From the IMG/VR virus record IMGVR_UViG_2740892231_000004: a stretch of DNA of 14,199 bases. One strand, 5' to 3'. How positions within the stretch are numbered: position 1 is the first letter of the stretch; every line of letters starts with the position of its first letter. The translations under genes were made by a program, and so were the position numbers. Of this stretch, positions 833 to 11,900 are shown in pieces. Origin of the DNA: a virus. Its lineage: Duplodnaviria; Heunggongvirae; Uroviricota; Caudoviricetes. The notes beneath the pieces were generated by a model. The model did not search any database. It was given only the letters and a program-made list of their open reading frames with translations, and was not told the DNA's origin.

Positions 833-858
833 CCCTGTTCACCCTGTAACCATCATGG

Positions 859-878
859 ACCGCTGCGGCGGTTTTTTT
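859..878 (+). terminator. Short GC hairpin (ACCGC-tgcg-GCGGT) followed by T7 tract, directly upstream of the capsid-gene SD
   Basis: Stem 859-863 pairs with 868-872, 4-nt loop, then TTTTTTT at 872-878, then AGGAGG at 885-890 and GTG at 896. Short stem, so termination efficiency is uncertain. Confidence 0.4.
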
Positions 879-895
879 ATTTTCAGGAGGCTGAT

Positions 896-2833
896 GTGAC
901 TCTTAAACGGGCCTGCTCCCTGCTGACGGTGAAATCCTTCAGTGAGGATGAGCGGGTGATCACCGGGATTGCGTCAACGCCTTCTCCGGATCGGGATGGT
1001 GACATCCTGGAGCCGGAGGGCGCGGAGTTTGGCAGTGCGATCCCGTTTCTCTGGCAGCATGACCATTCCCGCCCGGTGGGGCAGTGTACGGTGCGCCGGG
1101 TCAGCGAAGGGCTGGAAATCACGGCAACACTGGCGAAGCCCGTGCCGGATATGCCATCGCAACTGGCTGCCAGGCTGGATGAGGCCTGGGCGGCCATTAA
1201 GACCGGGCTGGTCAGGGGGCTGTCCGTGGGCTTCCGTCCTCATGAATACACCTTTCTGGACGGAGGCGGACTGCATTTTCTGCGCTGGGAGCTGATGGAG
1301 GTGTCTGCCGTCACCGTGCCCGCGAATGCGGAATGCACCATCCGGACCATTAAATCTTACGACCGCCCGTTTTCTGCCGCGTCCGGCAACCGGAAACCGG
1401 TGGTGAAAATCGCATCTTCTGCCGGCGCTGCGGCACAGTCAACAACCGTTTTTCATAAGGAAAAGACCATAATGAATATTGGCGAACAGATTAAAAGTTT
1501 TGAAAACAAGCGTGCAGCACTGGCAGCCTCCCTTGAGGAGGTCATGACCAAAGCCGCAGAGGAAGGGCGCACGCTGGATGTGGAGGAGGAAGAGCATTAC
1601 GACAGCACCGCAGCGGAAATACGTCAGGTGGATGCGCACCTGAAGCGCCTGCGTGAACTGGAAGCCGGTAAGGCCGCCACGGCGCAGCCGGTGAAACAGG
1701 CCGGTAACGGGAATGTGGCCGCGGTGGCTTCTGCGCCGGTGATCCGTGTGGAGCAGAAACTGGATAAGGGGATTGGTTTCGCACGTTTTGCCAAATCGCT
1801 GGCTGCGGCTAAAGGTGTCCGCTCTGAAGCCCTGGAAGTGGCCCGTCGTCAGTATCCGGATGACAGTCGTCTGCATCATGTCCTGAAATCGGCAGTGGGC
1901 GCGGGGACCACCACGGATCCGCAGTGGGCAGGCAGCCTGTCTGAATATCAGGAATACGCACAGGACTTTATTGATTACCTGCGTCCTCAGACCATTATCG
2001 GGCGATTTGGTCAGGGCGGGATCCCTGCACTTCGTCAGGTGCCGTTCAATATCCGTGTGCACGCCCAGGTGTCGGGCGGTGCTGCCGGCTGGGTGGGTGA
2101 GGGTAAGGCAAAACCCCTGACGAAGTTTGATTTTGAATCCATCACCTTCAGTCATGCGAAGGTGTCGGCCATTGCGGTACTGACGGAAGAATTGATCCGT
2201 TTTTCCAGTCCGGCTGCTGATGCACTGGTCCGTAATGCGCTGGCGGAAGCGGTGGTGGCGCGTCTGGATACAGACTTTGTGGACCCGAAAAAAGCGGCGG
2301 TGGCAGATGTCTCCCCGGCGTCCATCACCCATGATGTGAAGGGCACGGCATCAAGCGGTAACCCGGATGCGGATGCAGAGGCGGCGTTTGGACAGTTTGT
2401 GGCAGCAAACCTGCAGCCCACCGGTGCGGTCTGGCTGATGTCCAGCACCAATGCCCTGGCGCTGTCCATGCGTAAAAATGCGCTGGGTCAGAAAGAATAC
2501 CCGGACATGACCCTGCTGGGTGGCTCCTTCCAGGGGCTGCCGGTGATTGTCTCCCAGTACGTGGGTGACCAGCTGGTGCTGGTGAATGCCCCGGATATTT
2601 ATCTGGCGGATGACGGCGGCGTGGCAGTGGATATGTCCCGCGAGGCATCACTGGAAATGCAGTCTGAGCCGACCGGCGACAGTACCACGCCGTCGCCGGT
2701 GGAGCTGGTTTCCATGTTCCAGACAGGCAGCGTGGCCATCCGTGCGGAGCGCTGGATCAACTGGCGTCGTCGCCGTACCGCGGCGGTGGCGGTGATCACA
2801 GGAGTGAACTACGGCAGTGCGTCCGGCGGCTGA
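896..2833 (+). CDS. Prohead protease (HK97 gp4 / peptidase S78-like), scaffold-like delta domain and HK97-fold major capsid protein in one fused ORF, GTG start
   Basis: 645-aa ORF. GTG at 896 sits 5 nt after AGGAGG. The N-terminal ~180 aa match the prohead protease pattern (GIASTPSPDRDGDILEPEGAEF ... GLSVGF ... ELMEVSAVTVPANAEC). A charged coiled-coil-like segment (MNIGEQIKSFENKRAALAASLEEV ...) and a capsid-like C-terminal ~380 aa follow with no intervening stop. Confidence 0.85.
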   Translation: MTLKRACSLLTVKSFSEDERVITGIASTPSPDRDGDILEPEGAEFGSAIPFLWQHDHSRPVGQCTVRRVSEGLEITATLAKPVPDMPSQLAARLDEAWAAIKTGLVRGLSVGFRPHEYTFLDGGGLHFLRWELMEVSAVTVPANAECTIRTIKSYDRPFSAASGNRKPVVKIASSAGAAAQSTTVFHKEKTIMNIGEQIKSFENKRAALAASLEEVMTKAAEEGRTLDVEEEEHYDSTAAEIRQVDAHLKRLRELEAGKAATAQPVKQAGNGNVAAVASAPVIRVEQKLDKGIGFARFAKSLAAAKGVRSEALEVARRQYPDDSRLHHVLKSAVGAGTTTDPQWAGSLSEYQEYAQDFIDYLRPQTIIGRFGQGGIPALRQVPFNIRVHAQVSGGAAGWVGEGKAKPLTKFDFESITFSHAKVSAIAVLTEELIRFSSPAADALVRNALAEAVVARLDTDFVDPKKAAVADVSPASITHDVKGTASSGNPDADAEAAFGQFVAANLQPTGAVWLMSSTNALALSMRKNALGQKEYPDMTLLGGSFQGLPVIVSQYVGDQLVLVNAPDIYLADDGGVAVDMSREASLEMQSEPTGDSTTPSPVELVSMFQTGSVAIRAERWINWRRRRTAAVAVITGVNYGSASGG

Positions 2834-2848
2834 GTCTGATAAGGAGGA

Positions 2849-8945: not shown

Positions 8946-8953
8946 ATGATGAG

Positions 8954-8974
8954 AACCGCTGAGGCGGTTTTTTT
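8954..8974 (+). terminator. Short GC hairpin (AACCGC-tgag-GCGGTT) + T7 tract directly upstream of the tape-measure start
   Basis: Stem 8954-8959 pairs with 8964-8969, T run 8968-8974, ATG at 8993. Third copy of the hairpin/T-tract cassette. Confidence 0.4.
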
Positions 8975-8992
8975 ACGCCCGGAGAAAGGTGA

Positions 8993-11900
8993 ATGGCGAC
9001 GTTACGTGAACTGATTATCAAAATTTCGGCAAATTCACAGTCATTCCAGTCGGAGATCCAGCGGGCGTCCCGTATGGGCAGTGAATATTACCGGACCCTG
9101 CAGAATGGCGGACGTCAGGCTGCTGCGGCAGCCAGGGAGCAGCGCCGGGCTCTGGCTGAGCTGAACAGCCAGTTGACGGAAATCCGCGCTTCGGCTGTCG
9201 GAATGACCGGTGCGTTTGCCGGTGCCTTTGCCACCGGACACCTGATTTCGCTGGCGGATGAATGGAGCTCCGTGAATGCCCGTCTGAAACAGGCGTCGCA
9301 GTCATCGGATGAATTTTCGTCATCACAGAAAGTGCTGATGGACATCAGCCAGCGGACAGGCACCGCATTTTCGGATAATGCGGCCCTGTTTGCCCGTTCG
9401 GCTGCCTCGATGCGTGAATATGGTTACAGTGCTGATGATGTGCTGAAGGTGACGGAGGCCATTTCGACAGGGCTGAAAATTTCCGGTGCCAGTGCGGCAG
9501 AGGCGGGTTCGGTGATCACCCAGTTCAGCCAGGCGCTGGCACAGGGGGTGTTGCGCGGCGAGGAATTTAATTCGGTCAATGAAAGTGGGGACCGGATCAT
9601 TCGCGCACTGGCTGCAGGCATGGGCGTGGCCCGTAAGGATCTGAAGGCGATGGCGGACGATGGTCAACTGACGGCGGATAAAGTCGTTCCCGCGTTAATC
9701 AGCCAGCTGGGGATATTGCGTGATGAATATGCAGCCATGCCGGAAACGGTGTCTGACGGGATCACGAAGGTGGAAAACGCCTTTATGGCCTGGGTGGGCG
9801 GCGCGAATGAGGCCAGCGGAGCGACGAAAACGCTCTCCGGCGCACTGAACGGTGTGGCCGGAAATATTGATACCGTGGCAACAGCTGCGGGTGTGCTGGT
9901 TGCTGTCGGGGTGGCCCGGTACTTTGGTAATCTGGCTTCCGGAGCGATGTCTGCCACGGCAGGACTTGTGACCGCTGCACGTAATGAAGTGGCACTGGCT
10001 GAGGCCCAGTTAAGGGGAACGCAGATTGCCACGGCGCGGGCAAGGGCAGCCGTGTACCGGGCTCAGCAGGCTGTGGCGGCAGCCCGCGGGACTGAGATGC
10101 AGATTGCGGCAGAGGCCCGTCTGGCGGTCACACAGGAACGCCTGAACAGAAATATTGCTGCCAGAACCGCCGCCCAGAATGCGCTGAACAGTACAACGGC
10201 GGTGGGCTCACGTCTGATGAGCGGTGCGCTGGGACTGGTTGGAGGCGTACCCGGACTGGTGATGCTGGGAGCTGCCGCATGGTACACGCTGTACCAGAAT
10301 CAGGAGCAGGCCAGGGAGTCTGCGCGCCAGTATGCACTGACGATTGATGAAATCGCGCATAAAACGCCATCAATGTCTCTGCCTGAAGCCTCAGATAATG
10401 AAGGGCGAACACGGGAGGCGCTGACAGAGCAGAACCGGCTGATTGATGAGCAGGCCAGCCGGGTGAAATCCCTGCAGGAAAAAATCGCCGGGTATCAGTA
10501 TGTGCTGGCTAATCCGGGCTGGACGACCGGTAACGGCTTCATGATAAACCATCTGACATCGGTGAAAACTGTAACGGAAGAGCTTGCTCAGGCAACAGAG
10601 CAGTTTGCTGTTGAGCAGTCCCGTCTGGCACAGATGCAGGAAAAAGCGCAGTCCATTCAGGATGTGCTTGCCGGACTGGAAGAGCGCCGTGTTGTGTTAA
10701 TTCGTCAGCAGGCAGCAGAGCAGAATAAAGCGTATCAGTCACTGCTGGTCATGAACGGTCAGCATACGGAATTCAACCGCCTGCTGGGGCTGGGTAATGA
10801 ACTGCTGCAACAGCGTCAGGGACTGGCGAGTGTACCGCTGCGACTGCCACAGGCCACTCTGGATGATAAACAGCAGAGCGCCCTGAATAACACAGAGCGT
10901 CAACTGGCCCTGTCCCGGCTGAAAGGGGAAGAAAAAGAGCGTGCCCGGCTGGGGTATGCGGCGGATGACCTTGGTCTGGTGGGGGATACGTATCAGGAGG
11001 CGAGGCAGCGTTACATCCGTAATTCGATGGAAGCCTGGCGCAATAATGAGGCGAATAAACCCAAATCCCGGGCCGGAAAATCAGGGGCGGAAAAAGCGGA
11101 AGACAGTTTTTCCCGTCTGCTGAAGCAGCAGAAGGAACAACTGGCACTGGCCGGGAAGAATACAGAACTGGCAAAACTGAAATACCAGACCTCGCAGGGC
11201 GAGCTGAAAACCCTGACGGAGATACAGAAGCAGGAGCTGCTGCGCAATGCTGCCCTGATTGACCAGAAGAAAATCCGGGAGCAGTTACGGGCCCGGGAGG
11301 AGACCCTGAAAAATGATAATGCAGACGCAAGGGCATCAAATGACGCTGAGCTGCTGGGGTACGGGCAGGGTGAGCGGGTCCGTGAACGGATGCGGGAGCT
11401 GCAGCAGATTCGTGACGGCTACCGCCAGAAGGATGCGGACCTGCAGTCTCAGTATCAGACAGGGGATATCAGTGAGGATTTTTACAGACAGGCGCTGGCG
11501 CAGAATGCGCAGTATCTGAGTGAACGCCTTAAAGACCAGGAGGCTTTTTATGCCGAATCGGATGCGCAGCGTGCTGACTGGCAGAAAGGGCTGCAGGAAG
11601 GGCTAAGTAACTGGGTGGACAGCGCATCAGATTACGCTTCACAGGCAGCACAGCTTGCGACAGACGGTATCTCAGGGATGGTGAATAACATCACGGAGAT
11701 GCTGAACGGAAATAAAGTGGAATGGCGCAGCTGGGCTGCATCAATCCTGCAGGAAATATCAAAAGTTCTTATGAATGCGGCCATTGTCAACGGCATTAAG
11801 ATGGCGGCAAACAGTATGTCCGGTGCAGGAGGATTTTTCGGCAGTATAGGCAACTGGCTGGGTGGCGCGGTGGCAAATGCAAAAGGCGGCGTTTATCCCT

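Follow-up and report, generated by a model that had tools for sequence, protein, structure and literature searches.

Organization of the late region and anatomy of the cassettes

The 14,199-nt stretch of viral DNA that was analysed (IMG/VR record IMGVR_UViG_2740892231_000004; hereafter "the window") is the 14.2-kb virion structural region of a lambdoid prophage of Escherichia coli, of the type found in enterohaemorrhagic E. coli (EHEC), and it contains a tail module like that of phage HK97. All of its genes are on the + strand (Table 1). The window is ~94% identical to the Shiga toxin (Stx) phage Lys8385Vzw, and part or whole of it is matched in 1768 of 5426 complete E. coli genomes. Three of its intergenic regions, which precede the capsid, major tail and tape-measure genes, contain a site of the same build: a short, G+C-rich hairpin is joined to a run of T residues, which is followed by a Shine-Dalgarno sequence and a start codon. 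These sites, designated S1, S2 and S3, and a fourth cassette ahead of the minor tail gene L are considered here as candidate Rho-independent terminators within the late operon.

At S1-S3 the stem contains 4-6 Watson-Crick pairs and the loop 4-5 nt, within the 3-8 nt expected of a short-loop terminator. The T run starts at the last base of the stem, giving T7, T6 and T7 joined to the 3' arm of S1, S2 and S3, respectively, where a terminator calls for at least six T residues. The run ends 6-7 nt ahead of the ribosome-binding site, and the start codon lies 16-18 nt past the T run. Downstream of the stem, S1 and S2 share the continuation GGTTTTTT(T)ATT(T/A)TCAGGAGG. The predicted hairpin energies are -10.3 (S1), -8.5 (S2) and -10.8 (S3) kcal/mol, and the corresponding z-scores against shuffled sequence are -1.0, -2.2 and -4.4. 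A preliminary description of the window, made from its letters alone, had reported three sites with a CCGC-type stem, a loop of 4-5 nt, GCGG, 6-7 T residues, a Shine-Dalgarno sequence and a start, two of them with a common continuation. Direct reading of the coordinates reproduces each of these elements, and Pfam matches together with comparison to relatives bear out the assignment of the downstream genes. Its remark that the stems are short also holds, since the range of -8.5 to -10.8 kcal/mol compares with -16.4 kcal/mol for the fourth cassette, the porin terminator.

Table 1. Genes and hairpin elements of the window
Feature	Position	Strand	Remarks
Large terminase (terL), C-terminus	23-832	+	
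S1	859-878	+	(A)CCGC-TGCG-GCGG(T) stem-loop 859-872, T7 872-878; between terL stop (832) and protease-capsid fusion; cassette model R1, 44.6 bits
Translation signals after S1	885-898	+	Shine-Dalgarno AGGAGG 885-890; GTG 896 of protease-capsid fusion
Prohead protease-major capsid fusion	896-2833	+	645 amino acids (aa), GTG start; Pfam Peptidase_S78 + Phage_capsid
73-aa open reading frame (ORF)	2878-3099	+	
Portal gene	from 3045	+	Interrupted by scaffold gaps
Four head-tail genes	5999-7469	+	Last encodes gp17-type tail completion protein, stop 7469
Weak extra hairpin	7456-7482	+	AGGTCAC-GGT-GTGACTT over gp17 stop (7456-7472), then TTTCTTTTTT; -6.3 kcal/mol, z -2.4
S2	7498-7518	+	CCCGC-CGCGT-GCGGG 7498-7512, T6 7513-7518; between tail completion gp17 (stop 7469) and major tail gene
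Translation signals after S2	7525-7537	+	Shine-Dalgarno AGGAGG 7525-7530; ATG 7535 of major tail protein
Major tail protein	7535-8251	+	Immunoglobulin (Ig) domain; 68% identical to HK97 gp12
Chaperones G and T	up to 8945	+	T stop 8945
S3	8954-8974	+	AACCGC-TGAG-GCGGTT 8954-8969, T7 8968-8974; 8 nt past chaperone T stop (8945), before tape-measure gene
Translation signals after S3	8981-8995	+	Shine-Dalgarno GGAGAAAGG (GGAG at 8981); ATG 8993 of tape measure
Tape measure protein	8993-12235	+	53% identical to HK97 gp16
M-like protein	12228-12569	+	
Putative porin moron	12570-14119	+	AT-rich leader, porin gene, trailer, terminator; inserted between tail genes M and L
Porin gene	12768-13922	+	384-aa general porin; Pfam Porin_1, 480 bits
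Fourth cassette	14096-14119	+	GGGGCGC-GTCT-GCGCCCC 14096-14113, then T6; ends porin moron; 12 nt before gene L ATG
Minor tail gene L	from 14132	+	ATG 14132

The hairpin/T-run sites are not due to chance. When the window is scanned strictly for a perfect stem of at least 4 pairs (including at least 3 G-C), a loop of 3-6 nt and then at least six T residues, the + strand yields four sites and the - strand a single one, versus an expectation of 0.024 per strand from 500 dinucleotide-preserving shuffles. In addition, intergenic DNA, which makes up 6% of the window, contains 5 of the 11 T runs of at least six residues. A built-in terminator scan, which reports 14 terminators where 12 are expected, is too lax to discriminate. 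The single - strand site (5686-5698; CGCA-TCCCG-TGCG, then T6) lies within coding sequence, and almost every E. coli relative retains it.

Two further hairpins are present near the cassettes or in comparable positions. The weak hairpin at 7456-7482 and S2 together form two tandem terminator-like signals ahead of the major tail gene; this hairpin is found in most E. coli relatives, has been seen only in the E. coli lineage and is absent from the 22 distant loci described below. A strong, 9-pair hairpin at 2848-2869 (ACGGGAGGC-GUGC-GCCUCCCGU), which has no T run, is separated from the capsid stop by 14 nt and from the following ATG by 8 nt, and a putative terminator is annotated in the same place, after the capsid gene, in HK97. 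Neither of these hairpins, nor the fourth cassette, was listed in the preliminary description.

Conservation of the hairpin and T run

The hairpins persist among 80 close relatives from E. coli, and the spacer upstream of S2 shows insertions and deletions. At S3 a second E. coli allele, AAACCTGC-TGTG-GCAGGTTT, has both arms extended by an added base pair. Scans of IMG/VR with the window's own major tail protein, or with a capsid alignment led by the capsid protein of the window, returned only E. coli copies with 90-100% protein identity. Because these copies carried little information, more distant sets were built from alignments of diverged homologues. The set for S2 contains 22 loci from about a dozen genera of Enterobacterales, with major tail proteins that share 57-83% identity with that of the window; viral contigs for S1 were chosen by a capsid protein resembling homologues that are 73-78% identical to the window's.

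Conservation in related prophages had been proposed as a check on the original observation, and it is found at all three sites. At S2, the ATG of the major tail gene is preceded at 19-24 nt by a G+C-rich hairpin joined to a T run in each of the 22 distant loci. The upstream sequence is unrelated, and the set includes 9 different stems (CCCGC/GCGGG, CCGCC/GGCGG, CCCGGC/GCCGGG and others) and 13 loops. At S3, a hairpin and T run lie 15-24 nt before the tape-measure ATG in all 19 loci that hold this gene, with at least 11 different stems. At S1, all of the ~80 contigs from outside E. coli have (A)CCCGC-N4-GCGGG(T), a T run and GGAGG before the start; here the stem is constant and there are 11 different loops. 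Hairpin calls on each sequence separately give 9 stem variants for S2, at least 11 for S3 and 4 for S1, all of them paired. Across the relatives the stems range from 4 to 12 pairs, and the T run is always kept, although it is sometimes broken by one C or G. Three database proteins (P0002, P0034 and P0121) are fusions of gp17 with the major tail protein, or of the terminase with the capsid protein, and their ORFs cross S2 or S1 in the genomes concerned. Such ORFs may arise from changes in the length of the T run or from gene-calling artefacts.

A plain MAFFT alignment of S2, analysed with RNAalifold, misaligned the stems and produced a weak consensus, and it was replaced by the per-sequence calls and by an alignment fitted to a covariance model. 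This model, built from ten cassettes, has 77 matches (E <= 1) in 387 kb of the relatives' loci. Of these, 73 are on the late-gene strand, the same orientation that predominates in the strict scan of the window and the one required of terminators acting on late transcription. In the model alignment 99% of cells pair, four of the five pairs show double changes and none of 500 shuffles reaches the observed values; being fitted to the model, this alignment leans toward structure. When the partner column is slid, pairing falls to 16-65%.

The spacing of the cassettes bears on a different explanation, in which they act on the full-length late mRNA. The U-rich run 5' of the Shine-Dalgarno sequence would recruit ribosomal protein S1 and thereby boost translation of abundant proteins, and the hairpin would shield the ribosome site from upstream pairing or, after cleavage, protect the upstream RNA from 3' exonucleases. 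U-rich enhancers upstream of Shine-Dalgarno sequences are well established. In all relatives the distance from the end of the stem to the start codon is held at 15-26 nt, and the distance to the upstream stop is variable. Furthermore, within IMG/VR a shared 23-nt motif, GCGGGTTTTTTNNTWTCAGGAGG, occurs almost only before major tail (68) or capsid-fusion (43) genes. Such a function is plausible for S1 and S2, which have consensus AGGAGG sites and precede the two most abundant proteins of the virion. However, S3 and the fourth cassette precede proteins of low copy number (the tape measure and L), and the genes E and V of phage lambda are abundantly expressed without cassettes. A G+C-rich stem that runs directly into T residues and has an A-rich 5' flank is the hallmark of a terminator, and an enhancer has no need of it. 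Finally, the same hairpins appear to close moron transcription units in relatives (see below). A role in translation or in RNA stability is considered rather unlikely overall.

Passenger genes at the same junctions

Gene 15 of HK97, the first moron to be described, belongs to the YebO family. It is placed between the genes for the tail chaperone and the tape measure and is equipped with a promoter and a terminator of its own (PMC3594210). In the window, the gap between gene T and the tape-measure gene is 47 nt, versus 277-1688 nt in distant relatives. The cargo found there in relatives has a G+C content of 0.34-0.46, compared with 0.50-0.54 in the flanks, and encodes products of many kinds, namely several lipoproteins, a YebO-like protein (PF13974, 39 bits), a tetratricopeptide repeat (TPR) protein and a zinc-ribbon membrane protein. 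It is always followed by the hairpin and then by the tape-measure start. One E. coli relative also has a gene in this slot, which encodes a lipoprotein of 137 aa. By its position, S3 is the predicted terminator of a moron slot that is empty in the window. In loci from Pectobacterium, Symbiopectobacterium and Brenneria (L090, L093 and L102), a hairpin without a T run, GGCGCA-TCCC-TGCGCC, is present after the T stop and before the cargo.

Passenger genes are found at the other junctions as well. In an Enterobacter prophage (L098), a KilA-N gene (8190-8977) lies between two copies of the hairpin at the junction of gp17 and the major tail gene, and in a second contig (L262) a KilA-N homologue, split in two ORFs (about 460-1190), lies between two copies at the terminase-capsid junction. 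The two genes have 70% DNA identity. In each case the bracketing cassettes, AACCCGC-N4-GCGGGTTTTTT, are 96-100% identical over 19-25 nt. The presence of KilA-N homologues at two different junctions, each bracketed by cassettes, lends support to the idea that near-identical cassettes (this sequence and its variants) are more than terminators and also act as docking sites, or short shared homologies, by which moron cargo is exchanged from slot to slot or from phage to phage. Even so, this idea is judged unlikely.

The window itself contains a passenger gene between M and L. The porin gene is absent from Lys8385Vzw, in which L directly follows M, and it is recognized as an insertion for this reason. 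Like the cargo of the relatives, it also differs from the flanking genes in G+C content. Together with its flanks, the porin gene makes up what is, from its arrangement, a complete putative moron closed by a cassette of the S1-S3 build. Thus, the S1, S2, S3 and M-L junctions are all apparent hosts of independently expressed passenger genes, with the hairpin staying beside the ribosome site of the next late gene. Within the window, S1-S3 have one of the three parts of a moron: the 3' terminator-like element is in place ahead of the next late gene, no ORF is present in the stretch of 26 nt (S1), 28 nt (S2) or 8 nt (S3) that leads from the preceding stop codon to the hairpin, and a simple consensus promoter scan finds no + strand -35/-10 match anywhere in the window that could serve S1-S3 as a promoter of their own. 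On the strength of the same scan, the notion of a promoter concealed in the cassettes was rejected.

An empty slot might suggest that the sites are scars, that is, functionless terminators which were left behind when morons were lost and are carried along by linkage. Indeed, the S3 slot is occupied in most relatives and is empty in the window, where only 8 nt separate the T stop from the hairpin; the stems of the window are shorter than those of many relatives; and lambda lacks the sites. However, S2 is kept in 22 of 22 distant loci, only one of which contains a moron at this junction. Pairing has survived changes in both arms at sites where the adjoining spacer diverges freely, and the S1 stem remains constant through 11 loop variants. 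Neutral relics of 20 nt would not be expected to last across genera in which the proteins are only 57-83% identical. Given the compensatory changes in particular, an origin purely as scars is quite unlikely.

Proposed termination and insulation of the late genes

The reading favored here, to which a probability of roughly 60% is assigned, is that S1-S3 and the fourth cassette are weak-to-moderate signals for Rho-independent termination inside a late operon controlled by Q, which would be bypassed with the help of Q during lytic growth and would insulate the late genes in the lysogen. The anatomy of the sites, their strand bias, their conservation with compensatory change, their co-location with morons and their positional match to putative terminators of HK97 all point in this direction. 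Termination at the sites, the override by Q and the insulation of late genes in the lysogen as the selected benefit would follow if this reading is correct.

In lytic growth, the Q protein of the phage would modify RNA polymerase so that it ignores the hairpins, and the capsid and tail genes would be transcribed normally. In the lysogen, polymerase that had not started at the Q-loading site would be released in the T run. Such polymerase might come from promoters of inserted genes, from leakage past the first late terminator or from spurious starts. In the closest complete relative phage, Q, stx, the lysis genes and several regulator-type genes are located upstream on the same strand, and in Stx phages control by Q antitermination coexists with genes that are promoted independently (PMC7547250). 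Because the T run ends 6-7 nt before the ribosome-binding site, a terminated transcript would never contain the translation signal of the capsid, major tail or tape-measure gene. In relatives, a hairpin downstream of an inserted moron would double as the terminator of that moron. Two roles were suggested in the preliminary description. The first, to block spurious transcription of structural genes in the lysogen with bypass by Q, is favored by the evidence from sequence. The second, a 5' stabilizing hairpin that is left after processing, finds no support: of all features of the cassettes, the direct junction between stem and T run varies least, yet a 5' stabilizer would have no need of it.

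Several observations weigh against termination as the function of the cassettes. The stems of the window have only 4-6 Watson-Crick pairs, with predicted energies of -8.5 to -10.8 kcal/mol, and may release polymerase inefficiently. The consensus scan of the window reveals no promoter-like site on the + strand upstream of S1-S3 from which unwanted transcripts could arise. In RNA-seq (RNA sequencing) data from a strain of enteropathogenic E. coli (EPEC) that contains S2 and S3, the flanking genes are almost silent anyway. In addition, the hairpin is always positioned close to the ribosome site of the next gene and not to the preceding stop codon, which would be compatible as well with an action on translation or on RNA stability. 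Lastly, the late region of lambda has no comparable cassette before E, V or H; its single one is in the gap between I and J. Since lambda does without cassettes before these genes, late expression as such does not depend on them. At the I-J junction, the cassette-type hairpin of lambda (15464-15496) scores 25 bits, and HK97 has a putative terminator at 15107-15129.

If this reading is correct, the cassettes would show how a prophage with independently expressed passengers, such as porin, stx and exclusion proteins, holds back the expression of its capsid and tail genes until Q appears, and they would explain why passenger genes build up at a few fixed junctions. For annotation, the hairpins could be used to mark moron slots and expected transcript ends in prophages; for engineering, cargo placed upstream of the hairpins should be insulated from the late genes.

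Repeats in the portal region

Beyond the cassettes, the window contains repeats within and near the portal ORF. The C-terminal extension of this ORF (4735-5590) is composed of tandem units of ~162 nt (54 codons), at least 5 copies of which are present and are 73-97% alike. Two runs of 10 N in the window (5281-5290 and 5449-5458) fall within this array. At 3273-3587, two 152-nt copies, 97% identical, flank another N run (3425-3434). This duplicate looks like an unmerged scaffold overlap, as a result of which the portal gene seems to be split (3045-3530 and 3568-5310).

Comparison with known systems

A hairpin followed by a U tail also resembles the 3' end of an Hfq-binding small RNA (sRNA), and prophage sRNAs are common in EHEC and EPEC (PMC4104026, PMC8550237). 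If the cassettes were such ends, IsrK-like or Pas-like sRNAs would be cut from the late operon or would end within it. IsrK, from the Salmonella prophage Gifsy-1, has two small hairpins, a CCGC/GCGG terminator and a U tail, and its Rfam model (RF01394) matches 8907-8974, which includes S3, over its full length (27.7 bits; E 0.012 for the window); U7 tails would also suit Hfq. However, this score is far below the gathering score of 50, and most of the match is inside the T coding region; in Rfam scans of the window no family reaches its gathering score. Furthermore, IsrK is found beside a Q-like antiterminator gene (PMC4825925) and outside any tail module, whereas S3 is located between chaperone T and the tape measure. 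The identification of S3 as IsrK was rejected because of the sub-threshold score and the wrong context. Among the Pas sRNAs, PasB alone lies in a structural operon; it maps to the I-J gap, where its gene in the EPEC prophage PP6 (L082) is on the opposite strand. These coordinates are beyond the window, and the PasB probe sequence is absent from the window even when up to 3 mismatches are allowed. The EPEC strain carries both S2 and S3; in the portions of the EPEC supplementary tables that were searched, the genes that flank these sites appear only in the expression and annotation tables and not among the interactions listed. PasB and the other prophage sRNAs of EPEC and EHEC were rejected on these grounds. 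Taken together, an identity of the cassettes with sRNA 3' ends is highly improbable.

Internal attenuators within operons are present in E. coli, for example T1 of rpsU-dnaG-rpoD. Like T1, the cassettes would be partial terminators between genes of one operon, and S3 could lower the level of tape-measure and distal tail transcripts relative to those for the tail tube and chaperones. However, S1 and S2 precede the proteins that are in highest demand, and attenuation at these sites would oppose the required stoichiometry. As intrinsic terminators lying within a late transcription unit and expected to be passed by Q-modified polymerase, the cassettes would resemble lambda tR'. They differ from it in position, since tR' directly follows the late promoter and acts as a regulatory switch, whereas S1-S3 are deep inside the operon.

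The closest parallels are found in HK97 and, for the morons, in HK97 and HK022. S3 sits in the slot of the first-described moron, and relatives carry varied cargo of low G+C content there; unlike the morons of HK97 and HK022, S1-S3 in the window would be slot terminators without an extra gene or promoter. In the HK97 record (NC_002167; Juhala et al. 2000), "terminator, putative" is annotated at seven late-operon junctions. One of these, at 6692-6719 between the tail terminator and major tail genes, reads AACCCGC-CAGAT-GGCGGGTT TTCTTTTT ccaggagacagct ATG and is matched by the cassette model at 29 bits. Another, at 8398-8422, is at the junction of the gp15 moron and the tape-measure gene. In both, the next start codon is 5-13 nt away. 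S2 and S3 are at the junctions equivalent to these two and share with them a G+C-rich stem, a T run and a nearby start, and the tail proteins concerned are homologous (68% identity for the major tail protein and 53% for the tape measure). The differences are that the stems of the window are shorter, that the S3 slot, empty in the window, holds gene 15 in HK97, and that HK97 lacks the head module of S1 (terminase, then protease-capsid fusion) and with it any counterpart of S1. Thus, S2 and S3 occupy junctions at which putative terminators had already been recorded for HK97 in 2000, and S1 is, to judge from its build, a further element of this kind, located in a head module absent from HK97. The cassettes are a sound but ordinary finding, which leaves the accepted picture of lambdoid late regulation unchanged.

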